From Mobula hypostoma (Eukaryota), in NCBI RefSeq assembly GCF_963921235.1, contig NC_086097.1:3720001-3784000 (forward strand): a stretch of 64,000 nt of DNA. Direction: 5' to 3'. Made by a program: the position numbers and the translations under genes. The notes under the pieces were generated by a model. The model was not told the origin of the DNA. It made no database searches and saw only the letters and a program-made list of their open reading frames with translations. This document shows, piece by piece, positions 4,880 to 58,737 of this stretch (positions are counted from its first letter, which is position 1; each line of letters begins with the position of its first letter).

Positions 4880-5285
4880 AATTTGGTGGCAGAGTGGAGA
4901 TACGTCTCTACCAAAGGAGGTGTAAGGTGCTCCTTCCCTCCGCTAGCCTTCAGGTCACCCTGGGGCAAGGTGTAGCACCTGCTTAGCCTCTGATCGGGGT
5001 CATGTGAAACCATGGGAGCAGGTGGTGAGTGGTCGTATGAGCAGCTGGTGCAGATCACAAGCCCTGGTTATGCGACCACTGACGCCAAGCAGACAAACTC
5101 TGAAGAGTATTGTCAAAGGCTGAGGTCACCCATCTTGTAAAGACACTGTCCAGAAGAAAGCAATGACAAACCACTTCTGTAGAAGAACTCGCCAAGAACA
5201 ATCGTGGTCAAGTCCATGATCACCTCATCACATGACATGGCACATAATGATGAATGTCATACAACACGGCACATAATAATGATGA
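4880..5285 (+). mobile_element. RTE/BovB-related non-autonomous element; copies at ~675-1050 and ~61470-61830
   Basis: Three homologous ~400-bp copies with an agaag..aatggcaaaccact motif and a (tga)n tail. Confidence 0.6.
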
Positions 5286-6283
5286 TTTAGAGATGGCAGT
5301 GAACTTTACCTTGAATTTAAACTTGATATTCATCGTCAAAACCCTGCATAGTACTGATGCAAGGTTACAACCTGAAACATCAACAATTCCTTTCTCCCAC
5401 ACAGAGGTGCTGCTCAGCTTGCTGAGTTCCCCTGGCAGATTGTTTGTCGCTCTGCATTCCCGCATCTGCCATCTCTTGTGCTTCCATATTTCTACACAAA
5501 TCTTGGTACTTTTTTTCATTTCTACATATATACAGATTAAAATACTGCGGCCTATTGGAAAGCTGATTTGAAAGTACAAAATTATGCAAATGCAGAGTAG
5601 ATCAGGCAACCCGGGTTGGAGGTGAGGCTGATTCTTCTGGGGTAACCTTCCATTAGAACTTGTGAGAGGACCCAACAATAATGAAGCCTAACTTTGCTTT
5701 TTCTTTCACGTCTTGGCATTTAATGTACCTTTAGAATGCTTCCGTTTCAAAACACCCGGGTTTGGGTTCCTCTACTTGGAACATTTAGATCCGAAGATCC
5801 TGGATTGATGGGTGAGCACCTATTGGTGCTGCCGTGGACAGTCCCAAGTCCGGCTGCAAAATGAGCAGGGTTTAGCATGGGGCTAGCAACTCCATCCCGT
5901 AAAAATCCAGATCTACAGAGACACCAACAGAGGCTCTGGAGGCCTCATCCCTGGGAGAGGGGGATGAGCCTCAGCCGGGGACACTGTGAAAGACTGGCCC
6001 AGGACAGATGACACTGTTGAGTTACCGTCGGCGCCCTGTACCCCAGCAGAATGATTGGGCTTGTGTACATCTTCGTGCTCAGTCTCTTCATCAATCATAG
6101 ACCACAGGGTGGATCTTTAACTTCAGTCTTTATATCCCTTGAAGTATTATTTCCTTTTGTTCTGTTGTACAGTCACATATAAAAAATTGTGCCATTGTTA
6201 TACTCTACACTGAATCCTTTTTTCATGTCAATTAACTTACTTCTACTTCTATTGTGAATTATGGTGTTCCTTGCTGTGCTCTG

Positions 6284-6429
6284 TTATGCAAACTCATTCG
6301 TATAGTTGTACTCCAGGTAATTTCTCAGCCGGCCAGGGAGCGGCAGCAGTTCAATAAGTTTTAATCTCTCATGTCCCAATAGCTTCCGAATTTTGATTCT
6401 ACAAAGATGAACAAGTGGTCTTGGAGGCT
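6284..6429 (-). CDS. ASB2: ASB2 last coding exon, SOCS box ([48 protein letters not shown])
   Basis: Acceptor ttcttcgtttag|; BC-box LxxLCRxxI and Cul5-box LPLP; TAA stop at 6284-6286. Confidence 0.95.
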
Positions 6430-9400
6430 CTAAACGAAGAATGAAATCAACGCATGTTAAACAATAGAAGCAATGAAGAAAAATACAATAGATCCTGGAA
6501 CCTGGAATAAAACCCGCAATGCTGGCACGATAGTGTGGCGGTTAGCACAATGCATTACAGTACCAGCCACCTGAGTTGAATTGTCACCACTATTTGTGAG
6601 GAGTTTGTATGTACTCCCTGCGTGGGCTTCCTCCGGCTGCTCTGGTTTCCTCTCACAGTCCAAAGACGTACTGGTTGGTAGGTTAACTGGCCATTGTAAA
6701 TTGTCCCGTGACTAGATTAGTTATAAATTAAAGCTGTGAAAGGAGGAGGCTTGGGCACACACCTAGCAATCCTATCCTATAAAATCCCGGAGCTACAGAA
6801 AAGCCAACAGAAGCTCCAGAGACCTCATCCCTAGGAGAGGAAGAATCTTTGAAGATGGACTCCATTTGGAGATAACTTGAAAGACCGGCCCAGGACAGAG
6901 GCTCGGTGAGCTGCTGTCAGCAGGACAGGCCCAGGACAGAGGCTGTGTGAGCTGCTGTTGGCAGGACAGAGGCTCTGGGAGCCGCTTTCGGCGGGACTGG
7001 CCCAGGACAGAGGCTCTATGAGCTGCTTTTGGCAGGACAGAGGCTCTGGGAGCCGCTTTTGGCGGGACTGGCCCAGGACAGAGGCTCTATGAGCTGCTGT
7101 TGGCAGGACAGAGGCTCTGGGAGCCGCTTTCGGCGGGACTGGCCCAGGACAGAGGCTCTATGAGCTGCTGTTGGCAGGACAGAGGCTCTGGGAGCCGCTT
7201 TCTGCGGGACTGACCCAGGACAAGGCTCGGTGAGCTGCTGTTGGCAGGACAGAGGCTCTGGGAGCCGCTTTCGGTGGGACTGACCCAGGACAGAGGCTGT
7301 GTGAGCTGCTGTTGTCAGGACTGACCCAGGACAGAGGCTCTATGAGCTGCTGTTGGCAACCTAGGCCCAATAGGGGTGATGGGTTGAAGTAAAGAATAAA
7401 AAATAAAATGTAAATGAACAGTAAACATTATATCATTCAGCAAATATGTGTTAGATTTTGTTTCAAGCAACACACATAAAAGTTGCTGGTGAACGCAGCA
7501 GGCCAGGCAGCATCTCTAGGAAGAGGTGCAGTCGATGTTTCGGGCCGAGACCCTTCGTCAGGACTAACTGAAGGAAGAGCTAGTAAGATATTTGAAAGTG
7601 GGAGGGGGGGAGGAAGAGATCCAAAATGATAGGAGAAGGCAAGAGGGGGAGGGATGGAGCCAAGAGCTGGACAGGTGATTGGCAAAAGGGATATGAGAGG
7701 ATCATGGGACAGGAGGCCCAGGGAGAAGGAAAAGTGGGGGGGGGGAACCCAGAGGATGGGCAAGGGGTATAGTGAGAGGGACAGAGGGAGAAAAAGGAGA
7801 GTGAGAGAAAGAATGTGTGCATAAAAATAAATAACGGATGGGGTACGAGGGGGAGGAGGGGCATTAGCGGAAGTTAGAGAAGTCGATGTTCACGCCATCA
7901 GGTTGGAGGCTACCCAGACGGAATATAAGGTGTTGTTCCTCCAACCTGAGTGTGGCTTCATCTTTACAGTAGAGGAGGCCGTGGATAGACCTATCAGAAT
8001 GGGAATGGGACGTGGAATTAAAATGTGTGGCCACTGGGAGATCCTGGTTTCTCTGGCGGACAGATTTTGTTTCTATGTCATTGGCACCATGAATATAGCT
8101 TGAACAATTGTACACAAAGTTTTCTATTAATCCCTTCGCATTATTATGACAATATTCTGTTTAGAATAAATAAATAATGCTATTAGAGACTTTTAGATAG
8201 GTACAGGAATGTGAGGAAAATGGAACGATATAAACATTGCGTAGACAGAGGAGATGAGTTTAGCTAGCCATTTGCTTACTAACGTAATTGGTTCGGCACA
8301 ACATTGTGGGCCAAATGGCCTGTTCTTGTGCTGTACTGTTGTATGTTCTATGTTCACAGATTTAAAGACTAGTTATTCCCTGAAAGCCTGTCCAAAATGA
8401 ATGCATTGTTATATTAACACTTTCAGAAACTCCATGGTTCCTTTTAATTAAAGGTTGCTCCTATAAATATGTTCTTTTCTGTGATTAAGTTGCTCTACAT
8501 GTTTACAAAAAGTCACTGATTAAATGTTCAGTACATGTTTTTTGGCCCTCTTGGGAATGTGATTCAAAAATTACATATTATGTAATTTGTGCTCTTATTA
8601 TCTAGAAACATTCCCATGATACTGCGTGAGAAAGCTCTGTGTAATGTTGTACCAGAATTTTACAAGACGGAGGAGTTGAGAAACAATCCTGACTTTACCA
8701 CAATTTTGTCATCATAGGACAAATTTAAGATCTATTTCCTAAAAGATTGTTTTATGAAATTGACAATCTGTTTCCTTCAGGTGCCATGGTAACGTAAGGG
8801 TTAGTGTTGCATTATTACAGCTCAGGGCCTCAGAGTTCAGAGTTCAATTCCAGCATCATCTGTAACAAATCTGTATGTCCTCCCAGTGGAATGATTGGGT
8901 TTTCTTCAGATCCTCTGGTTTCCTCCCACAGTCCAATAACATATTATTTAGTAGGTTAATTGGTCGTTGTAAACTGTCCTGTGATTAGGTTAAGGTTAAA
9001 TTGGGGGTTGCTGGGCAGCGTGGCTCGAAGCGCTGGAAAGACCTATTCCAAGCTGTATCTCTAGCTAACGAACAAAAAACTCAGTAAATGCCTAATAACA
9101 ACATTTAATTTTAGTCCATGTCCATGCTGAGTTACAACAGGATAATTTATTAAGGTGTTGATTTTACTTGCCTGATTTAGCTTTGATGGTTGCCCACTCC
9201 TCGTAGCTATCCAGATGTTCCTTCAGCTTACTGCAGAGAGTCACGTTCCCAACGTAGTCCAGGAGCACGTCAATGATTGGTCCGGCCCATCTGTAGATTC
9301 TGTCTGTGGATATGATCTCACAAAACTAGAAAGGAGATCGTTAGAAAAATTAATACTCCTGCACACAATTTCAGAAATATTCACATCAGAGCAAACCAAT

Positions 9401-12400
9401 TAATGTTGTGAAGATCCATTCCTGAAAAAAGTCAATCTAGATCTCTCTGCTGTTGCAGACATTGTTTTGATGCATTCTGCTCTATCATAGATTGTTTTCA
9501 TATTGGTTTGGAAGAAGATTTATGATCTGTCCTTAATGTTTAGTGAAATACACAACTAAAATAAATATATATTAACAAGGTTCAGGCTGCTACCTAATCT
9601 GTAGACAGCTATGCAGCATTCTCTGTCCTTGTGCTTCCCTGTCGAGGTCTATAATATAAGTGATAATATAATATAATAATATAAGTGACAACTTGAAAAC
9701 AAACTAAAAGTCCATGAGAGGCTAAGTGAGGGAGTATTGCACTGTATGATGCCTTCCAGCCAAATGAATTCCTCGTTGAAAAAGTATGTTTAATCCCTTA
9801 TTACAAATCAACACTAAAATTCATGTAGAACTAAAGGAAGCGAGACTATTGTAATTGGATCAAATTCAAACAAAGATGATCAGTCAAAGATGAGCGGTCA
9901 ATGAAAAATATGTGCTCCCTACTAACCCCTTCTGTAAGCCACCAAACTGCTGAACAGGTGACTATATTTGCTTTATTTTAACTGCCACCCAATGCCAGGT
10001 AACACCACCCAAACCCACCTGACAAATAACCTTAACCGTCTGAGGATGCGTAAGCAACTACAATACAGACAGGTAATACATAGATGATGTCTCCAACAAG
10101 GACTACTGCAATTATTACACACACCAAATGCCAGAGGAACTCAGCAGGTCAGACAGCATCTATGGAAAAGAATACAGTTGATGTTCCTACTGAAGAGTCT
10201 CAACTCGAAACGTCGACTGTACTCTTTTCCATAGATTCTACCTGGCCTACTGAGTTCCTCCAGCATTTTGTGTGTGTTGCCTGGATTTCCAGAGTCTGCA
10301 GATTTTCTTGCGTTTGCAATTATTATACAATGGCTTCATCAAACAGGCTACAACCAGGACATGTGAGATCACCGTCCTGTGAGAACAATGTGAAATATAG
10401 TGAGGCCCGTATGATGAGCAAGTGATACAGGTAATCAGTAAGGCTGATCAACACCTCTATCCACTAACCCACCCCTCCACACACCCCCAACCAGCACTGC
10501 CTTATCATTTCCGGTCAATCAATCTATATATACAAGCCATCTTGTGTATTTATTAGTGTGTGCTCTTTATCATATTGCAGAATTTTTTGTGCCGCATCAG
10601 ATCCAGGGTAACAATTATTTCATTCTCCTTTACACTTGCGTACTGGAAATGACATTAAACAATCTTGAATCTTGAATGTTGAGTGATGTGTGCAATTCCC
10701 TGTTTTATACTCCAGGGGGCCCTATCTATCTGTCTGTCTGTCACATTGGCTCTGTTCCACACCGAGCCTTCAACATCAGAGGGAAATGGATCAGCCATGA
10801 TGAAATGGTAGAGCAGACTCGATGGGCCAAATGGCCCAATTCTGCTCCTATATCTCATGGTCTTATGTTGTACATAATTTACTAGCAATTCATGGGAACT
10901 TATACTCTGCAAGATAGAATAGTATTTTACCCGTTCATACTTTAATTGCAATATAGCCCCCAGAAGTATTGGTACCTCTCCATGGCATGTTAATGGAGTT
11001 TCTCTGACAATAATGTTCACTCTGCAGCCTGTTTCTGACAGGAATTTGCCTACATTCCAATAAGGATAAACAATCAATGTGAAAACATGAATCCTTAGCT
11101 CACCTGTGGGTAGCAGGCCAAAAACTGCTAATATCAGCTTATATATCAGTTTAATAAAGCTTATTTATTGGGACAAAAGATGTTGTAATCACATATTTGT
11201 AAAAAACCATATATTTTGAACTTTAATATCTGTATTCAATGTACATGTCTGACTGTTCAAATTTGGACTGGTCTCATGGACTGTTTGTCCCACTCCCATC
11301 AGGGAGGAGGCTACGTAGCATCCACATCAGGACCACCAGACTCAAAAACAGTTACTTTCCCCAAACAGTAAGACTCAATCCACTAACCCATCCCACCACA
11401 CCACAACCACCACTACTTTACCATTTCCTGTCAGAGTCACCTCATGTCTTCTCCATGGATTGTCACCTTGTCGCGGTGGAGAAGCTTGTGTGGTCCTGAG
11501 ATCCCGAGAGCAATGCCATCTGGAGCTATGCTCCTGGTAGGGTCACCCATGACGGTAAAGTCGAGGGTGAGGTCCCTGACAAGACCTCAACGGTGGAACA
11601 GGAGGACGAAGTTACTTCGAACTCAATGGCTGTGAAGGCGGATGAAGGCTGCAACAAATCCATCAGCTCCAATCGTCGTGGTTTCCATGCCATTGGAATC
11701 AGTTGGTTGATTTGTGAAGCATCGTGTGCTTCTTGGAGTGCAACACCAAGTACACGTTAAACAAATACACGCACAGGCGTCTTCACTCTGTGGGCCACTT
11801 CTTCAGAACAAAGATCATCATCCTCGACCTCAAGGGATAGCCACGACGATGACACCTTATGTACAGACACTCCTGTGCTGAGCATCACTTTATGGACATA
11901 AACATAGAACATAAAAAGCCTACAGCACAATACAGGCCCTTCGGCCCACAAAGCTGTGCCGAACATGTCCTTACTTTAGAAATTACCTGGGGTTACCCAT
12001 AACCCTCTATTTTCCTAAGCTCCAAAAGTCTCTTAAAAGACCCGATCACCACTATCGCCGGCAGCCCATTCCACGCACTCACCACTCTCTGCATAAAAAA
12101 TTTACCCCAAAAATCAATCTATATATTTATCTATCTTATGTATTGATATTTATTGTGTTTTTTAAATTATTATTAATGTGTTCTTTATCTTACTGAGTTT
12201 TTTGTGCTGCATTGGACCTGGAGTAACAGTTATTTCGCTCTTCTTGTGTATTGGAAATTACATTAAACAATCTTGAATCTTGAAAAGCCATAAAGCTATT
12301 GGCATTCTGTGCATGGGGAGATACGGTTGGTTTACAATCAACTGATTGGCGGAAATAGATAACAAGCAGCGCAAATTCAGGGACCCTGGGGAGATCATTC

Positions 12401-15400
12401 TCAAAACAGAAAGTTCTGTATAGTACTTTTTCCTTTCAAAGAGGGAAGAGAATGGGAAAGCTGAAGAAAAGTGTGCAGGGAATTCCAGTAAACCGGAGCA
12501 GAGAGGTAGAGAAGTACAGAGCGGCCGGCTGAGAAGAGAGGATGGTGCACAGGGAATTGGCAGCACGCTGAATGATGGGACGTTGCAGTTGAGTTTTGAC
12601 TTGATTTAAGTTGCAGATGTTAATATTTGACTTCATTGCAGGGTCTGAACTCTGCAATGGATAGTCCCAAGCCCGACTTCGAAAGGGGGGGGGGTCGGGT
12701 TGGGCTTGGGGGCAACAACCCTGTCCTGTAAAAACCCAGAGCTACAAAAACACCAGCAGAAGCTCGAAACACCTTACCCCTGGGAGAGGAAGACTCTTCG
12801 AAAGCAAGCTACACCTGGGGACAACCTGAAGGAGACTGGCCCAGGGCAGAGGAGTCTGGCGAGCTGCTGTTGGTGGCTGATGCCCCAGTAGGGGTGATGG
12901 TCATAGGTAAGCAAGTGATGTCTAAGCCTACACCGTCAGTGCTGACTACTCGCCCACTCACTTGCTTACACACTGACTAGGTTACTGAACACGGAGTCTC
13001 GAAAGGAGAGGCAGGGAAGTAGCACAGTAACAGTGAGAAGGCCATAAGATATAGGAACAGATTTAGGCCATTGATCCATTGAGTCTACACCGCCATTTCA
13101 TCATGGCTGATCCATTTTCTTCTCTCAGCCTCAAACTCCTACCTTCTCTCCACATCCCTTCATGTCCTGACTCATTATGAATCTATCAACCTCTGCTTCA
13201 AATATACCCAATGACTTGGTCTCCACAGCTGCCAGTGGCAACAACTTCCAAAGGTTCACCACCCTCTGGCTAAAGATGTGGAGAAGAGGAGTGTGTGGAA
13301 GGAATAGGTCTGGCTGAGTGTTTAGCAAACTTCTGAGAGAGAAGGAAAGTGGTGGTTGTGCTGAACTACCTGCAGCAGTGTCGGTGATGTGGCCCGCTCT
13401 ATGGGAAGTAACGGTTGGTGGGGCCCATTCCTGTGGCTGGACTGAGCTACATTTCCCTAGAGGGACTATAACAGCCCCACACTCTGGTCCAGCAGCGCTA
13501 TCCCCTATACAACCTGGTCCTCAAATGGTTAAAGTTCAAAGTAAATTTATTATCAAAGTATACATCACCATATAGTTCTCTGAGATTCGTTTTCTTGGGG
13601 GTATACACACTAAATACACAAGAAATACAATAGAATTAATGAAAAGCTGCACACAACAAAAACAGACAAACAACCAATGTGCAAAAGACCACAGACCATG
13701 CAAATACAAATGAGAAAATGAAATAATAACAATAAATAAATAAGTAATAACTATGAAGAACATGAGACGAAGGGTCCTTGAACATGAGGTCATAGGTTGT
13801 GGAAACAATTCAGTATTGGGTGAGTGAAGTTGATGAGGCTGTCCCCTTTGGTTCGAATGCCTGATGGTTGAGGGTTAATAACTGTTCCTGAACCTGGTAG
13901 TGTGAGCCCTGAGGCTCCTGTACCTTCTTCCTGATGGCAGCAGTGAGAAGAGAGCATAGCCTGGATGGTGGGAGTCCTTGAAGATGGATGCTGCTTTCCT
14001 GCAATAGCCCTCCTTGTAGATGTGCTCATTGATGAAGAAGGAGTTTCCTATGACGGACGGGGCTGTATCCATTGAAAAGCGATGGCTGTTGGCCAAGTTT
14101 CCCAACTGGAGTCACCAAACAGTAAGGTATAAAATGCATAAAGAGTGTTTCTGTAGAACCATAGAACATTACAGCACAGAAACAGGCCTTTTGGCCCTTC
14201 TTGGCTGTGCTGAACCATTTTTCTGCCTAGTCCCACTGACCTGCACCTGGACCATATCCTTCCATACACCTCTCATCCATGTACCTGTCCAAGTTTTTCT
14301 TAAATGTTAAAAGTGAGCCCGCATTTTCTGTGTGAAGAAGCCCCCCCGCCAATGTTCCCTTTAAACTTTTCCCCCTTCACCCTTAACCCCATGTCCTCTG
14401 GCTTTTTTCTCCGCTAGCCTCTGTGGAAAAAGCCTGCTTGCATTCACTCTATCTATACCCATCATAATCTTATATACCTCTATCAAATCTCCCCTCATTC
14501 TTCTATGCTCCAGGGAATAAAGTCCTAACCTATTCAACCTTTCTCTGTGAGTTTCTCAAGTCCCGGCAACATCCTTGTAAACCTTCTCTGCACTCTTTCA
14601 ACTTTATTAATATCTTTCCTGTAATTCACAATACTCCAAATTCGGCCTCACCAATGCCTTATACAACCTCACCATAACATTCCAACTCTTATACTCAATA
14701 CTTTGATTTATAAAGGCCAATGTACCAAAAGCTCTCTTTACGACCCTATCTGCCTGTGACGCCACTTTTAGGGAATTTTGTATCTGTATTCCCAGATCCC
14801 TCTGTTCCACTGCACTCCTCAGTGCCTTACCATTTACCCTGTATGTTCTACCTTGGTTTGTCCTTCCAAAGTGCAATACCTCACACTTGTCTGTATTAAA
14901 CTCCATTTGCCATTTTTCAGCCCATTTTTCCAGCTGGTCCAAATCCCTCTGCAAGCTTTGAAAACCTTCCTCACTGTCTACTACACCTCCAATCTTTGTA
15001 TCATCAGCAAATTTGCTGATCCAATTTACCACATTATCATCCAGATCATTGATATAGATGACAAATAACAATGGACCCAGCACTGATCCCTGTGGCACAC
15101 CACTAGTCACAGGCCTCCACTCTGAGAAGCAATTCTCTACCACCACTCTCTGGCTTCTTCCATTGAGCCAATGTCTAATCCAATTTACCACCTCTCCATG
15201 TATACCTAGCGACTGAATTTTCCTAACTAACCTCCCATGCGGGACCTTGTCAAAGGCCTTACTGAAGTCCATGTAGACAACATCCACTGCCTTCCATTCA
15301 TCCACTTTCCTGGTAACCTCCTCGAAAAACTCCAATAGATTGGTCAAACATGACCTACCACGCACAAAGCCATGTTGACTCTCCCTAATAAGTCCCTGTC

Positions 15401-54400: not shown

Positions 54401-57400
54401 GCGAGACTAACGGATGCCACCACCACCCCCACCCCGGACCCGTGACACCTCCTCATTAGTCAGGAAGGCACAGTGGTGTCTACAGTTTCTGAGGAGACTG
54501 AGGCGCGCAAGGCTGCCGTCTCCATTTTAACAGCTTTCTACAGGAGCATCATCGGGGCATTCCTATCTGGCGGTATCAGTGTGTGGTACAGAAGCTGCGA
54601 GTTACCGCGCCACAAGATACTACAGAGGATAGCAAAAACCGCCGAGAGGATCACTGGGGTTTTGTGACATTTACCCGAAGCACTGTTGAGGATCCCTACC
54701 ACATCCCACAATCTCTTTGACCCACTACTATCAGTCAAGACGCACCGGAACGTCAGGACTAGACTGCCAGACTGGGTAACAGCTTCTTCCCTCGGGCTCT
54801 GAGACCTGCCGCCACCGAGGTTTCATCACTATGACAGCGAACTGTTTGCTGTTTATCTCTGCTGCGCGCCATGCGTTTTGAATTATATTTTATTGACGTG
54901 CTGTGGTCATATTTTGTTTCATGTATGTGATATATTGTCACAGAGTGCGCTGGCAATATCAGAACCCAACAGCAGGAAAGACAGACGGCGGCGAGAGGTT
55001 ATTCACAGTAATTCCAAACTCAGCCCAGCGACCCCGCGGGAAGTAGCATTCTCAAAACCGGGACCCCTACGATTAGCGCTAATCGGACATCCACAAGTAA
55101 CTCGGAATTCCAGAGCCCATCTAAGTAAACTTAAACAGAAAGCGCCAGGAGATCGCATTAAGTGCGAGTCGCTCGAGATAAACACAAGGACCTCTAAACG
55201 ATTAAGGACTCGCGTGAAACAATTTTGATGTGTGTTGCTTGAATTTCCAGCATCTGCAGAATTCCTCAGTTTACAACAATTAACCTATTCGGGTGCTCTA
55301 TAAAACCTCGGAGACCAACGCTCTCCGGCGCCCCGCACAGGCCCGAGGGGGCCTCACTACACGGACAAACACGCACCCTGGTCCGTGGTGCGGACGAATG
55401 TTGTTTTGTTTGGTTGTATACATTTACACAGCCGGATAACTATAAACTCGAACTTGAACCCGAGTCCCTTAGATGGTCAGCAGGATTTTCCCACGATTCA
55501 ACGGCAACTTCTTCCCCTTCACCGTCAGATTTTCGAACGGACAATGGACCCAAACACTGCCCCGTTATTCCTCTCTTTGCCCTGTCTATTTATTTTTCAG
55601 CTTAGAGCTACGTATGTACGACTGCCCAAAGCAACGATTTCCACGTCACATAAAATCTGAATTTAGGAGCATCTGCGGATGCTGCAAATCCAGAGTAACA
55701 CACACAAAATGCTGGAGGAGCTCAGCAGGTCAGGCAGCATCTATGCAAATGAATAAACAGACGATGTTTTTAGCCAGGACCCTCCTACAGGTCTGGAAAG
55801 AAAGGGGAGGAGCCAGAATACGCAGGCGGCGGGGGGGCGGGTGCGGGGGGGTGCGGAGTGCAAACTGGAAGAATAAGAACATAGAACATAGAATAGTACA
55901 GCGCAGTACAGGCCCTTCGGCCCACAGTGTTGTGCTGACCCTTAAGCCCGGCCTCCCATATAACCCCCCCACCTTAAATTCCTCCATATACCTGTCTAGT
56001 AGTCTCTTAAACTTCACTAGTGTATCTGCCTCCACCACTGACTCAGGCAGTGCATTCCACACACCAACCACTCTCTGAGTAAAAAACCTTCCTCTAATAT
56101 CCCCCTTGAACTTCCCACCCCTTACCTTAAAGCCATGTCCTCTTGTATTGAGCAGTGGTGCCCTGGGGAAGAGGCACTGGCTATCCACTCTATCTATTCC
56201 TCTTATTATCTTGTACACCTCTATCATGTCTCCTCTCATCCTCCTTCTCTCCAAAGAGTAAAGCCCTAGCTCCCTTAATCTCTGATCATAAGAAAGGGGA
56301 GGAGCCAGATTATGCAGGCGGGGCCGGGGGGGGGGGTAGAAGCTGGAAGGATAAGTATAAACACAGGAGATTCTGTTAATGCTGAAAATCCGAAGTAACA
56401 CACAGAAACGCCGCACCGACAGGAAGGAATCAACTGAAATTCTTCTTCAGAAACTTCGACTCCATCGATGCTGCCGGACCTGCCGAGTTCCTCCAGCATT
56501 TTGCACATGTTGCTTCAAAAGGATAAGCACCAGGAGGGAGATTAGCGGGGAATGACAAGGGAATCACTGAGAGATCGATCCCTGTGGCAAGCGGAGGGTG
56601 AGGTGGAGGCCAAGATGCGATTGCTGGTGGGTTACATTGAGGATGGTGGAGGCTGTGCAGAATGATGTGCCAGACACAAAGTTCGTCAGGTGGCAGGTTA
56701 TTTATTTAATAATAATAAACCTGATAATGATATGAAGAAAAAGCCTTCAGAGGAACTTAACGTGTCTGGTAGCATGCGTGAAGGGAAACGTACAGTTGAT
56801 TTTTCTGGAGCAGGTGAAGGGCCTCGACTTAATATGTGATCTCTTTATTTTCCACTACTGCTCCTGCAGCTGGCTTGTTTCTCCTCCTCTCTCCCCCTCT
56901 CTCCCCTCTCTCCCCCTCTCTCCCCCTCTCCCCCCTCCCCGTCTCTCCCCTCTCTCCCCCTCTCTCCCCTCTCTCCCTGTCTCTCCCCCTCTCTGCCCCC
57001 TCTCCCTGTCTCTCCCCATCTCTCCCCCTCTTTCCCCCCTCTCCCCGTCTCTCCCCCTCTCCCCCTCTCCCCCTCTCCCCATCTCTTCCCTCTCTCCCCT
57101 CTCTCCCCGTCTCTCCCCCTCTCTGCCCCCTCTCCCTATCTCTCCCCCTCTCTCCCCCTCTCCCTGTCTCTCCCCATCTCTCCCCCTCTCCCTGTCTCTC
57201 CCCCTCTCTCCCCCTCTCCCTGTCTCTCCCCATCTCTCCCCCTCTCCCTGTCTCTCCCCCTCTCCCCGTCTCTCCGTCTCTCCCCTCTCTCTGTCTCTCC
57301 CCCCTCTCCCCCTCCCCCTCTCTCCCCATCTCTCCCCCCTCTCCCCTCTCTCCCCATCTCTCCCCCTCTCTCCCCCTCTCCCCGTCTCTCCCCTCTCTCC

Positions 57401-58737
57401 CCCTCTCTCCCCTCTCTCCCCATCTCTCCCCCTCTCTGCCCCCTCTCCCTGTCTCTCCCCATCTCTCCCCCTCTCTCCCCCCTCTCCCCGTCTCTCCCCA
57501 TCTCTCCCCCTCTCTCCCCGTCTCTCCCCCTCTCCCCGTCTCTCCCGTCTCTCCCCTCTCTCCCCTCTCTCCCCCTCTCCCCTCTCTCCCCCTCTCTCCC
57601 CCTCTCTCCCCCTCTCCCGCTCTCTCCCCCTCTCTCTCCCCCTCTCCCCGTCTCTCCCCTCTCTCCCCCTCTTCCCCTCTCCCCGTCTCTCCCCTCTCTC
57701 CCCCTCTTCCCCTCTCCCCTTCCCCCTCTCTCCCCATCTCTCCCCCTCCCCCCTCTCCCCATCTCTCCCCCCTCCTCTCTCCCCATCTCTGCCCCCTCTC
57801 TCCCCCTCTCCCCATCTCTCCCCCTCTCTGCCCCCTCTCCCCGTCTCCCCCTCTCCCCCTCCCCTCTTTCTCCCTGCCTCCTCACCCCCCCAGCTCTCTG
57901 TCTTTTCCTCTCTAGCTCAGTCTGTAGACCACGTGTGTGTATGTGTGTGGGTGCAAGCTCTTGCACATCTTTAAAAGGCGATGCCTCAGAAAGGCAGCAC
58001 CCATCACTAACGACCCCTATCACCCAGGACACGGCCTCTTCTCGTTACTACCACCAAGGAGGAGGTACAGGACCTTGAAGATCCAAACTCAATGCTTCAG
58101 GAACAGCTTCTTTCCCTCCACCATCAGATTTCTGAATGGACAATGAATCATAAACTCTACTTTTTTCTCTACTTTTGCTCTCTTTTTACTACTTAGTTAA
58201 TTTAATTCTTATTTATATTTCTTATTGTAATTTATAGTTTTAAAATAATGTATGGCACTGCACGGCTGCCACAAAACAACTAATTTCATGACAAGTTCAA
58301 GTTCGAGTTTAGTACCCATGACTATAGCTAAATGAAACCGTGTTCCTCTGGGGTCAGGGTGCAAAGCATTATCACCAACAGTCACACACAGCACAAGGCA
58401 CATAAAGCACGTATGTCAGCGATACTTAACCTGATTTTGACTCTGTGGCTCGCTGTCCGTTCAAACACGCGTGTGCTCACCTGTTCTTGGGGCATGGCTG
58501 GGGTCCCAAAGCCCGGACAGCTGGATGATTGCCCTGAGCTTGGGCTCGGGCTAGGGCCCTGGGGTGAGTCGGCACTGTCGAACCGGGAGGCTGGGCGGAG
58601 GAGGAAGAAGTGACAGAGAGGCTTTGCTCTACTGCCATCTGAATGAGCTCGTCCTCACTCAGGCTGCTGTACAGACTGTATTCCTCCTGGCCGAAGGTGT
58701 GGCCCGAATCACGGCTGCCTGTGACCCGTGTCGCCAT
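6284..58737 (-). CDS. ASB2: ASB2 orthologue, beta-type isoform, spliced CDS: join(58481-58737, 52647-52745, 50730-50896, 34861-35016, 32305-32550, 28381-28552, 26599-27154, 9172-9325, 6284-6429); 1953 nt, 650 aa
   Basis: Manually spliced exons give one open frame with compatible phases (2,2,1,1,1,2,0,1). The product matches remembered vertebrate ASB2 throughout: [25 protein letters not shown], ankyrin repeats ([36 protein letters not shown]), [16 protein letters not shown], and a C-terminal SOCS box. Confidence 0.95.
6887..7357. repeat. Minisatellite, 71-bp higher-order unit built from ~30-bp and ~41-bp subunits
   Basis: g(g/a)cccaggaca recurs at 6928, 6999, 7070, 7141, 7212 and 7282. Confidence 0.92.
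7465..8061 (-). mobile_element. Penelope 3' fragment in the last ASB2 intron
   Basis: Encodes the GIY-YIG C-terminus ([10 protein letters not shown]...IDFSNFR). Flanked by a 12-bp direct repeat agattttgtttc (7453-7464 / 8062-8073). Hammerhead variant at 7530-7565. Confidence 0.88.
9172..9325 (-). CDS. ASB2: ASB2 coding exon 8 ([51 protein letters not shown])
   Basis: Acceptor ctcctttctag|, non-canonical donor CAG|gcaagt; 154 nt. Confidence 0.93.
12645..12915 (+). mobile_element. Short RTE-derived element with a degenerate twister ribozyme core at its 5' end; copies at ~5795-6065 and ~6730-7390
   Basis: GTCCCAAGCCCG...G-rich...TTGGGC followed by gc.a.caacc...gtaaaaa, and an RTE-type ORF end (LAQDR..W....LCP). 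Confidence 0.62.
16104..18211 (+). mobile_element. Penelope-like retroelement, 5'-truncated: RT + GIY-YIG endonuclease + pLTR, inserted into a CR1
   Basis: ORF 16025..17497 has Penelope-type RT motifs ([36 protein letters not shown]). The same frame continues through GVIY...LYIGET to TAA at 17813-17815 past two TGA stops. Host CR1 sequence resumes at 18212. Confidence 0.93.
18115..18150 (+). ncRNA. Minimal type-I hammerhead ribozyme motif in the Penelope pLTR
   Basis: AGTC-CTGACGA-AGG(GTCTCGG)CCT-GAAA-CGTC-GACT: stem I, CUGANGA, stem II, GAAA, palindromic short stem III, GUC cleavage triplet. Confidence 0.85.
24061..24745 (+). mobile_element. CR1 3' fragment
   Basis: Degenerate ORF2 C-terminus ([23 protein letters not shown]) and 3' UTR shared with many copies in the window. 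Confidence 0.8.
25180..25975 (+). mobile_element. CR1 5' region (ORF1 zinc-finger/leucine-zipper and SGNH esterase remnants)
   Basis: Translates to [18 protein letters not shown]...[12 protein letters not shown] and [17 protein letters not shown], typical of CR1 ORF1. Confidence 0.75.
26599..27154 (-). CDS. ASB2: ASB2 coding exon 7 ([26 protein letters not shown]...HRKVVQ)
   Basis: Within ORF 26560..27168; acceptor ttcccacccag|, donor CAA|gtaagt; 556 nt. Confidence 0.95.
28381..28552 (-). CDS. ASB2: ASB2 coding exon 6 ([57 protein letters not shown])
   Basis: Acceptor ccactctcctcag|, donor GA|gtaagt; 172 nt; translated by hand. Confidence 0.94.
29336..30142 (+). mobile_element. Solo LTR (807 bp) inserted in a V-SINE
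   Basis: TGTTG...CAACA termini; 4-bp flanks ttcc / tccc; TATAAAT ~29954 and AATAAA ~30067; the two halves of the host SINE rejoin across it. Confidence 0.75.
32305..32550 (-). CDS. ASB2: ASB2 coding exon 5 ([28 protein letters not shown]...RFLVKH)
   Basis: Within ORF 32051..32569; acceptor ctttttaacag|, donor CG|gtaagt; 246 nt. Confidence 0.95.
32666..33010. mobile_element. Tc1/mariner (pogo/Tigger-like) MITE relic
   Basis: Imperfect ~22-bp TIRs CAGTGGATTCTGGTTAATTGGG / CAGAGGATTCCAGTTCATTGGG; internal tandem tttatttgggacagtgtgccactt; TA TSD decayed. Confidence 0.65.
34861..35016 (-). CDS. ASB2: ASB2 coding exon 4 ([52 protein letters not shown])
   Basis: Acceptor tgtaaacag|, donor AAG|gtaacc; 156 nt, ankyrin repeat; translated by hand. 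Confidence 0.93.
35870..37680 (+). mobile_element. Deleted CR1 (endonuclease remnants) interrupted by a younger CR1 3' fragment (~36376-37080)
   Basis: YLNVCS..NEVDEL...[11 protein letters not shown] is the APE endonuclease start; the inner fragment ends in tttctatgtttct. Confidence 0.75.
38143..40695 (+). mobile_element. L1-clade LINE, 5'-truncated with 5' inversion (38143-~39047 inverted)
   Basis: Minus ORF 38165..38950 has L1 RT motifs ([35 protein letters not shown]). Plus ORF 39594..40361 has the C-terminal DRC..HMFWTC. AATAAA and an A-rich tail follow; TSD aaaaactct at 38134-38142 / 40696-40704. Confidence 0.92.
41598..42680 (+). mobile_element. Young 5'-truncated CR1 (ORF2 C-terminus open, (ttctatgt)n tail)
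   Basis: ORF 41580..42584 runs KFADDTKL...[14 protein letters not shown]; the 3' UTR is nearly identical to the copy at ~20557-20748 (-). Confidence 0.9.
44663..44698 (-). ncRNA. Hammerhead ribozyme motif in a short Penelope-derived insertion
   Basis: Reverse complement GGTCCTGACGAAGGGTCTCGGCCTGAAACGTCGACT; catalytic core intact. Confidence 0.8.
48019..48252 (-). mobile_element. Short solo LTR (234 bp)
   Basis: TG...CA termini, perfect 5-bp TSD CTATT (48014-48018 / 48253-48257), AATAAA and ATTAAA on the minus strand. Confidence 0.82.
49490..50510 (+). mobile_element. Rex1/Babar LINE 3' fragment
   Basis: [37 protein letters not shown] and [11 protein letters not shown]. Related LPSGRR..RTTR..NS.FP fragments occur at ~2630, 4440, 11270, 13820, 27215, 27890, 34150, 54470, 57975 and 60355. 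Confidence 0.75.
49755..50284. mobile_element. Non-autonomous DNA transposon (PIF/Harbinger-like MITE) in a Rex1 fragment
   Basis: 18-bp perfect TIR AGGCTGATTTATACTTGT; 3-bp flanks TAA / GAA; host sequence rejoins as agactaa|gacaactg. Confidence 0.82.
50730..50896 (-). CDS. ASB2: ASB2 coding exon 3 ([55 protein letters not shown])
   Basis: Acceptor tttgattccag|, donor G|gttagt; first ankyrin repeats. Confidence 0.93.
51185..52495 (-). mobile_element. R4/Dong (Rex6-like) non-LTR retrotransposon relic with restriction-like endonuclease
   Basis: Minus translation: [12 protein letters not shown] (RT), [13 protein letters not shown], and [26 protein letters not shown]...QKATIL (REL C-terminus); TAA-rich tail ~51190. 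Confidence 0.72.
52647..52804 (-). CDS. ASB2: ASB2 coding exon 2: alpha start [20 protein letters not shown] at 52804; beta splices into an internal acceptor at 52745 ([32 protein letters not shown])
   Basis: Not shown in this frame in the ORF track. It resembles human ASB2alpha MTRFSYAEYFSLF. The internal acceptor ctctctcag|GTCG keeps the beta frame, and the donor is GC|gtaagt. Confidence 0.88.
53030..53080 (-). promoter_or_regulatory. Candidate core promoter of the ASB2 alpha isoform (GC box plus TATA box in a CpG-rich region)
   Basis: On the minus strand, GGGGCGGAG (~53069-53077) is followed by TATAAAT (53037-53043), about 240 bp upstream of the alpha ATG. An E-box CACGTG lies at 52872-52877. 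Confidence 0.4.
53863..54410 (+). mobile_element. Non-autonomous non-LTR element of uncertain clade; copies at ~22325-22860, ~53310-53730, ~23600-23965 (-) and ~33040-33200 (-)
   Basis: Multiple homologous copies with a 5' hairpin ggtagtggg...cccactacc and catctaggagaaggaaaactctga. Confidence 0.6.
55876..56288 (-). mobile_element. Young CR1 3' fragment inserted in a Penelope-end relic
   Basis: [28 protein letters not shown]...; (ttctatg) tail; ataagaa at both ends. Confidence 0.85.
56878..57912. repeat. ~1-kb polypyrimidine/polypurine low-complexity tract (ctctcccc-type units)
   Basis: Almost exclusively C/T on the plus strand. Confidence 0.95.
58481..58737 (-). CDS. ASB2: ASB2 beta-specific first coding exon ([40 protein letters not shown]...PKNR), with ubiquitin-interacting motif
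   Basis: Acceptor ttcttcccctacag| (exon starts 58756), ATG at 58737 in GGAGGATGG context, donor AACAG|gtgagc. [14 protein letters not shown] is a UIM as in mammalian ASB2beta. Confidence 0.93.

Follow-up and report, generated by a model that had tools for sequence, protein, structure and literature searches.

Copies of a probable twister-headed retrotransposon in Mobula hypostoma

We have analysed a 64-kb stretch of the Mobula hypostoma genome (G000:C1:3720001-3784000, from an assembly of 3,475,679,493 bases in 200 contigs), referred to below as the window. By sequence comparison we find within it three decayed copies of one dispersed repeat of ~250 nt (repeat family D19). These are very probably dead copies of a non-autonomous, internally deleted retrotransposon of the RTE clade, an element lacking long terminal repeats (non-LTR), with a 5′ end that was made by a twister ribozyme. 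The ancestral element would have begun with a type-P1 twister (nt 1-47) in which both P3 and the P1 5′ strand were missing, followed by a stable hairpin and ~60 nt of RTE 5′ untranslated region (UTR), and then by what is left of the final ~25-45 codons of the RTE open reading frame (ORF) and a (TAAG)n or (GAA)n tail. A twister-made 5′ end on a short RTE-derived element had been proposed from the sequence of the window (the original prediction), and at the level of the family the conserved positions, the boundary, the target-site duplications (TSDs) and the RTE homology all argue that this is probably correct.

The twister core

A search of the genome with the type-P1 twister model (RF03160) gave a rough count of 198,712 candidates, 62 of which were scored. 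Fifty-two of these match at E ≤ 1, the best with 46.9 bits. On scanning the eight best genomic loci against 4227 Rfam families with cmscan, twister-P1 is matched with 39.2-46.9 bits and E values from 1.1e-7 to 1.8e-5. All eight copies carry every highly conserved position of the twister-P1 family, i.e. U-AA, the P2 C, GCC, CGGUCCCAAGCCCG, AAA and GAGGG, and the highly conserved nucleotides are also found in the majority sequence of the family. The P2 pairing sought by the original prediction is present in the eight alignments as CUCC/GGAG, together with P4 as CGG/CCG, and the minimum free energy (MFE) fold of one copy (L031) yields P1, P2 and P4. The putative partner nucleotides of T1 and T2 are identical to the RF03160 consensus, being L4 CCC with the GGG of GAGGG, and L4 GC with the GC of GCC; this assignment of pairs follows the crystal-structure literature.

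Two helices are missing. P3 is deleted in all eight cmscan alignments, and the 5′ strand of P1 lies outside the element. That strand is provided by chance flanking sequence, and between zero and two of the four P1 pairs in each of the eight alignments are non-standard (v-marked). It is the loss of P3 and of the P1 5′ strand, and not mismatches in the core, that keeps the scores below the curated gathering score of 67.2. Rfam thresholds miss these twisters without P1 and P3 entirely, and it is therefore repeat annotation rather than covariance-model scanning that reveals them.

Directly after GAGGG-UU there is a strong, conserved hairpin (GGGCAUGGGG...CCCCAUCCC), located at nt ~48-75 of the family, L036:1549-1580 and 12697-12735 of the window. 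It is common to the short family and to the leader of the long interspersed nuclear element (LINE) described below, and sits where the 3′ strand of P1 would be. This hairpin may stand in for P1, stacking in its stead.

The 5′ boundary, target-site duplications and tails

Thirty loci with 120-nt flanks can be aligned from AACTC onward, and have nothing in common upstream. In a set of 29 copies sampled by BLAST, which is unbiased for flank, 26 extend to family nt 1-3 and the other three are truncated or diverged; AAC is the start of 23. The exact CpG-tolerant 26-nt start occurs in 255 genome copies, where the base at -1 is T in 117 and A, C or G in 138 (G 39, A 33 and C 28 in a hand count of the first 100 of these). 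T is enriched at -1 (~46%, compared with a T content of 28% in the window; binomial p 1e-9) but is not obligatory. The original prediction proposed to test whether 5′ ends pile up at U^AA; they do pile up at AA, but the preceding U is not obligatory.

TSDs were sought as exact direct repeats of at least 8 nt, comparing the 20 nt before AA with the 70 nt after the 3′ block of the element. They were found in 14 of 47 copies, compared with 3/47 and 0/47 when control flanks were used. The duplications abut AA at the 5′ end of the family. In 7 of the 14 copies the duplication runs through the -1 base, and so this base comes from the target and not from the RNA. The tails are variable microsatellites of (TAAG)n, (GAA)n and variants of these. 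From the boundary at AAC, the TSDs and the tails we conclude that the repeat starts exactly at the predicted twister scissile bond, where putative self-cleavage would have left the 5′ ends of the family, and that it was inserted by target-primed reverse transcription.

The way in which such an element would have spread can be outlined. Having no recognisable promoter of its own, it would be transcribed within longer host transcripts. The twister would cut between the -1 base and the first A, releasing an RNA beginning AACUCC to be copied into new sites by an RTE endonuclease and reverse transcriptase, with priming at the tail repeats. As the RNA would begin AACUCC, every new copy would start at AA next to a TSD, which would supply both the -1 base (T in ~46%) and any partner strand for P1. 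Self-cleavage, co-transcription and the identity of the mobilising RTE are what we infer in this scheme; what can be read directly from the genome is the anatomy of the sequence, its boundary and TSDs, its homology to RTE and how old the copies are.

The family in the genome

A BLAST search with 12640-12940 of the window as query gave 3474 first-look candidates. Forty were scored and, the query itself excepted, are 74-78% identical to the query; nearly all align from query base 5-19. Two 25-nt blocks free of CpG were counted genome-wide, with at most 3 mismatches allowed. There are 2273 matches to the 5′ block and 2044 to the 3′ block, and none to the reversed control pattern of either. From these counts we conclude that the copies number thousands and are mostly full length. 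Across 24 copies sampled by BLAST, identity to the majority sequence is 86-93%, with a mean of 90%. The 54 sampled loci that bear a twister hold dispersed copies, one per locus, and these have TSDs and microsatellite tails. The frequent variants CTCTGCC and CTCCACC are products of CpG decay of CTCCGCC.

The ~30 copies that are letter-perfect from P4/L4 to GAGGG provide ready substrates for studying how far a twister functions when the flank upstream of it is random.

A CpG-rich variant of the element (AATTCCGCCGCGGCCGG...) is present twice on G000:C91, at 72.67 and 72.71 Mb (L042 and L043). The two copies are contained in 1.5-kb segments that are 98% identical, inverted and ~41 kb apart, an arrangement that looks like a recent segmental duplication.

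RTE origin of the element

A search for a LINE partner using DUF6451 (PF20049) led to an RTE-type LINE, L092, on the minus strand at G000:C36:131598900-131603400. It has an uninterrupted open frame of 1018 aa; Exo_endo_phos, RVT_1 and DUF6451 lie in the 988 aa that begin with the first ATG. The stop codon of the ORF is followed by 11 nt and then by (GAA)n, a tail that is common to L092 and the short family. At the other end, the 5′ UTR of L092 matches family nt 41-82 (E 7e-6), and five more copies of this type of LINE align better than L092 over ...AAGGAGGGTTGGGCATAGGGTTAGCAGCCCTATCCTG. Protein atlas neighbours of the L092 ORF have the same set of domains, some of them being named 'craniofacial development protein 2'. 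We read the ORF as belonging to the RTE clade from its architecture and these neighbours, rather than from a tree.

Direct comparison of the L092 C-terminus with the short copies by tblastn is weak. Eight copies are matched at E ≤ 1, all on an AQDR..W motif; one reversed and five shuffled control queries match 0-4 copies each. The link to the ORF tail was therefore made through an intermediate protein. The phmmer query was P0001, a stretch of 53 aa translated from one natural short copy; searched against 1.84 billion proteins, it found P0006, residues 44-66 of which align to P0001 (74%, 6e-10). The 67 residues that close the L092 ORF are in turn matched by residues 2-68 of P0006 (51%, 7e-17). 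Three of the five phmmer matches (P0003-P0005) are unrelated repeat proteins. Copy 1 of the window remains readable by eye in the frame of the ORF C-terminus.

From homology to the RTE at both the 5′ UTR and the ORF C-terminus we conclude that the element is an RTE head joined to an RTE ORF tail, with the middle deleted. A ribozyme head and an ORF tail alone would thus be sufficient for propagation. The element had been called a SINE-like derivative of an RTE. Derivation from an RTE is borne out by these homologies, but in the strict sense of a short interspersed nuclear element (SINE), with a pol III head, the name does not apply. ARAGORN finds no tRNA genes in five loci and the window from 5000 to 14000, and there is no match to Rfam tRNA, 7SL or 5S in the 64-kb window, a 9-kb search or the eight best loci. 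Lacking a tRNA-type head, the element is SINE-like only loosely, and is better named an internally deleted RTE.

None of the 54 twister-bearing loci runs into a LINE, all being the short element or deletion or duplication variants of it, and no orphan 3′ ends were found in ~360 kb of sampled sequence. The partner of the short family would have an ORF ending in ...LERLAQDRGLWRAAVGGLCP. Two other LINE types were considered as partner and set aside. LINEs with Exo_endo_phos_2 (PF14529) are present at 30 loci lacking both a twister and homology to the family, and a PF03372 match (L091) belongs to another kind of LINE, which has an ORF of 986 aa and lacks a twister.

Six copies of the L092 type (L092-L097) share an extra conserved leader of ~55 nt upstream of a twister remnant. 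The homologous site reads ...UACCCUGCC-ACGCAU-GUCG-UAAAAGG-CGAC-U-AAGGAGGG. P2-like and P4-like stems are kept, L4 has neither CCC nor GC, and GAGGG is shortened. Comparison with Rfam of the 700 nt at the 5′ end of this LINE (L092) gives no match to a ribozyme family at E ≤ 10. It is conceivable, though we hold it only tentatively, that an RTE lineage of this large animal genome once relied on a twister without P1, the scissile U being restored by the target at close to half of all insertions, a state of which the short family would be the fossil, and that the L092 lineage has since destroyed the catalytic loop (with L4 replaced and GAGGG shortened) and gained the ~55-nt leader, switching to a ribozyme-independent formation of its 5′ end. 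If true, 5′-end formation would have changed naturally, within one LINE clade, from dependence on a ribozyme to independence of it.

A query of 561 nt, made up of 40 nt from the 5′ region, the rest of the 5′ UTR and ~420 nt from the start of the ORF, gave 19 further matches to the L092-type LINE. Ten are nearly full-span with 85-88% identity and nine are partial or weaker (76-91%). Another LINE is present genome-wide in dozens of copies with an open frame of the same length, 1224 aa, and near-identical Exo_endo_phos scores, which suggests a young family of this genome that is unrelated to the twister-headed repeat.

Weighing the alternatives

A number of results weigh against a twister origin of the 5′ end. 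Scores below the covariance-model threshold had been named by the original prediction as a ground for rejecting it, and none of the 62 scored candidates reaches the Rfam gathering score (best 46.9, compared with 67.2). Since the copies are neutral decay products they offer no evidence of covariation. The majority sequences of two subfamilies are identical over nt 1-98, giving no signal of ribozyme-specific selection, although this comparison is uninformative as a test. Just 30 genome copies are letter-perfect over P4/L4-AAA-P2-GAGGG, a count that took in neither the P2 5′ strand nor GCC, and nearly all copies in the genome are therefore dead. MFE folding, in which pseudoknots are not modelled, is no better than for shuffled sequences (z = +1.43 for L036 and -1.60 for L031). 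Lastly, the only autonomous RTE with a readable 5′ end, that of the L092 type, is without a canonical twister. A full-length twister-headed RTE is suggested from coordinates only. A canonical twister start at C36:131261218 (+) lies 2563 nt upstream of a DUF6451 match on the same strand, compared with a spacing of ~2640 nt in L092; the pair was picked out by eye, and the chance expectation for such a pair among the positions listed is, as a rough value, ~0.004. This candidate copy (C36:1312612xx) is not among the 122 matches of a protein search with the N-terminal 330 aa of L092.

A sharp 5′ end is by itself also compatible with transcription beginning at AACUCC from a promoter inside the element, the twister-like sequence then being a fossil or a structure serving translation or RNA stability. 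Full-length non-LTR elements normally have a sharp 5′ end, the failure of every copy to pass the gathering score fits such a reading, and the youngest RTE lineage that we have read, with its 55-nt leader upstream of the twister remnant, evidently manages without a ribozyme. However, the transcription start would then need to match, to the nucleotide, a twister scissile bond at which all the conserved positions are matched, and the same coincidence, with cleavage demonstrated, is described for Perere-3 in the text of PMC8501958. The lack of a tRNA-like head in the ARAGORN scans also tells against it, and we regard a promoter-defined end as unlikely. More improbable still, and already disfavoured, is that the resemblance arose by chance in a G/C-rich repeat head that was never a ribozyme. 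The window taken alone would allow this, as its twister matches are at the level of noise (12.7 bits, E 7.1; 12.2 bits, E 3.4) and a 9-kb search gave none. Yet the better copies match with E 1e-7 to 2e-5 against 4227 Rfam families, and they have the 14-nt P4/L4 block, GCC, AAA, GAGGG and a Watson-Crick P2 in the correct order and spacing. Moreover, the homologous position in the Perere-3 RTE lineage is occupied by an active twister, as described in PMC8501958.

We give equally little credence to a retrozyme-like element, in which tandem ribozyme copies would generate small circular RNAs in place of linear RNAs mobilised by a LINE. Two copies on the same strand of the window are 900 nt apart (5829 and 6733), and ribozyme-bearing circular-RNA retroelements do exist in animals, as PMC7761336 describes. 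Against this, the 54 sampled loci are dispersed single copies with tails and TSDs, a second copy was not found in ~300 kb of sampled flanks, the counts of the 5′ and 3′ blocks are nearly equal, and the downstream member of the pair in the window (copy 3) is without the ribozyme. An RTE derivative with a twister-made 5′ end accords best with the evidence.

Comparison with known systems

The precedent invoked by the original prediction is real. In Perere-3, a LINE of the RTE family in Schistosoma mansoni, twister 'T-variants' are described at the 5′ end by Liu et al. 2021 (PMC8501958). According to that text, the TSD adjoins the cleavage-site AA and makes up the P1 5′ strand, GTAA repeats occur at the 3′ boundary, and cleavage was demonstrated both in vitro and in reporters; its supplement tabulates T-variants by organism, with vertebrates included. 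As far as Perere-3 is described there, the family in M. hypostoma resembles it in having a type-P1 twister core at the extreme 5′ end of an RTE-type element, copies that start at AA after the scissile bond with a TSD that abuts AA and provides the upstream strand, short 3′ repeats of the GTAA type, and insertion that is not site-specific. It differs in being a ~250-nt non-coding deletion derivative rather than a coding LINE, in its host, which has a genome of 3.48 Gb and is not a flatworm, and in its age, being ~10% diverged from its majority sequence, with copy 1 shared with three other organisms. Cleavage has been demonstrated for Perere-3, whereas the present family is known from sequence.

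De la Peña et al. 2020 (PMC7761336) mention, as work 'in preparation', the conservation of 'truncated but catalytically competent' twisters at RTE-superfamily 5′ ends. This is exactly the architecture found here, described in one sentence, and the text of that paper gives no data, hosts or non-autonomous derivatives. Full-text literature searches returned no paper on a non-autonomous twister-headed family, on this genome or following up PMC7761336, and the T-variant list in the supplement of PMC8501958 may already include this species or its relatives. The family is a further instance of a published arrangement of twister and RTE. It extends a partnership known experimentally only in Schistosoma to a non-coding derivative, thousands strong, in a large animal genome.

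Relative to the canonical type-P1 twister (RF03160), the head has all the highly conserved positions, P2, P4 and the L4 sequence UCCCAAGC. It departs from RF03160 in having no P3 and a P1 5′ strand that is not part of the element, in the conserved hairpin at the place expected for the P1 3′ strand, and in its scores of 39-47 bits against the curated 67.2.

Ribozymes resembling that of hepatitis delta virus (HDV) were reportedly described at LINE 5′ ends by Ruminski et al. in 2011 and Eickbush in 2010. The LINEs that carry them include R2 and, among others, elements of RTE type (cited in PMC7761336 and PMC13725137). To judge from these accounts HDV-like ribozymes do the same job, freeing the 5′ end of a retroelement RNA from a host co-transcript. 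They are of a different class, however; an HDV-like ribozyme lies wholly downstream of its cut, while a twister loses the P1 5′ strand on cleavage.

The copies in the window

The sequences on which the original prediction was based are present, as AACTCTGCAATGGATAGTCCCAAGCCCGAC...AAAGGGGGGGGGG from 12648, GCTGCCGTGGACAGTCCCAAGTCCGGCTGCAAAATGAGCAGGG from 5828 and GTGAAAGGAGGAGGCTTGGGC at 6737-6757, and the copies are decayed, as it had stated, with 84-86% identity to the majority sequence and mutations in P4, GCC and GAGGG. Copy 1 (12648..12915, + strand) is full length, corresponding to family nt 1-250, and 85.6% identical to the majority sequence. Its -1 base is G, and no TSD was recognisable in the search for direct repeats. 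Comparison with good genome copies identifies a decayed twister core at 12648..12696 (+; 12.7 bits with cmscan), which retains AA-CUCU (the P2 5′ strand) and L4 UCCCAAGC. In this core GCC has become GCA, P4 CGG has become UAG and AAAGGAGGAGGG has become AAAGGGGGGGGGG plus additional bases. The 5′ junction of copy 1 is bridged by contigs from three other organisms (X19, X20 and X21) with ~8-10% difference, and the insertion is therefore old and shared with other organisms.

A 660-letter contig from the same organism (run X1) spans 12553-13212, covering copy 1 and both flanks with two differences. The run is guessed to be RNA; if it is RNA, the dead copy 1 is read through uncut. All 24 runs consist of Logan contigs, in which RNA ends would not show, and none is recorded as RNA.

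Copy 2 (5829..~6066, +) begins at family nt ~5-7, with AACT absent or mutated, and is 84.3% identical to the majority sequence. The twister remnant within it (5829-5874, +) has UCCCAAGU as L4, and GGAGGAGGG has become AUGAGCAGGG. The hairpin AGCACC-TATT-GGTGCT (5815..5830, +), which folds in the MFE structure, had been considered a possible P3. It is formed by flank and the first bases of copy 2, and is mostly the flank of a copy truncated by ~4 nt; it has no counterpart in the 29 sampled copies of what is a family without P3, and we reject this assignment.

Copy 3 (6733..~7395, +) is 5′-truncated at family nt ~29 and 85.9% identical to the majority sequence. All that remains of the ribozyme is AAAGGAGGAGGC-TTGGGC, and the 3′ end is ...AATAGGGGTGATGGGTTGAAGTAAAG. 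Copy 3 contains an internal tandem expansion of a 71-nt unit at 6891-7356. The unit is derived from the ORF-tail part of the element and is repeated ~6 times. A database protein (P0002) is a comparable tandem array of the same ...WRQLERLAQNRDAWRKLVGGLCP... unit; thus such expansions of the ORF-tail unit recur elsewhere and are mis-called as genes.

Taken alone, the window does not allow the ribozyme to be recognised. The sequence GTCCCAAGYCCG with at most one mismatch occurs twice in the 64 kb compared with 0.19 expected, and one of 100 shuffles reached two. There is no match at the Rfam gathering score anywhere in the 64-kb window, and none to a twister at E ≤ 10 in a 9-kb search of it. Shorter slices give matches at noise level, to twister-P1 at 12643-12696 (241-nt slice; 12.7 bits, E 7.1) and to Twister-P5 at 5815-5853 (221-nt slice; 12.2 bits, E 3.4). 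From the window by itself the question is undecidable, and the signal is clear only in the better-preserved genome copies. The highly conserved nucleotides are lost from the window copies (GCC to GCA, CGG to UAG and GAGGG absent), and with P4, GCC and the GAGGG strand mutated these copies are no longer able to form the ribozyme.

Other features of the window

A match resembling the C/D-box RNA SNORD73 is found on the minus strand at 11130-11197, with 31.4 bits (E 0.025) compared with a gathering score of 42. The region from 56855 to 57700 is a large array of tandem repeats with a period of ~10 nt (families D1 and D2, with 65 and 42 overlapping copies).

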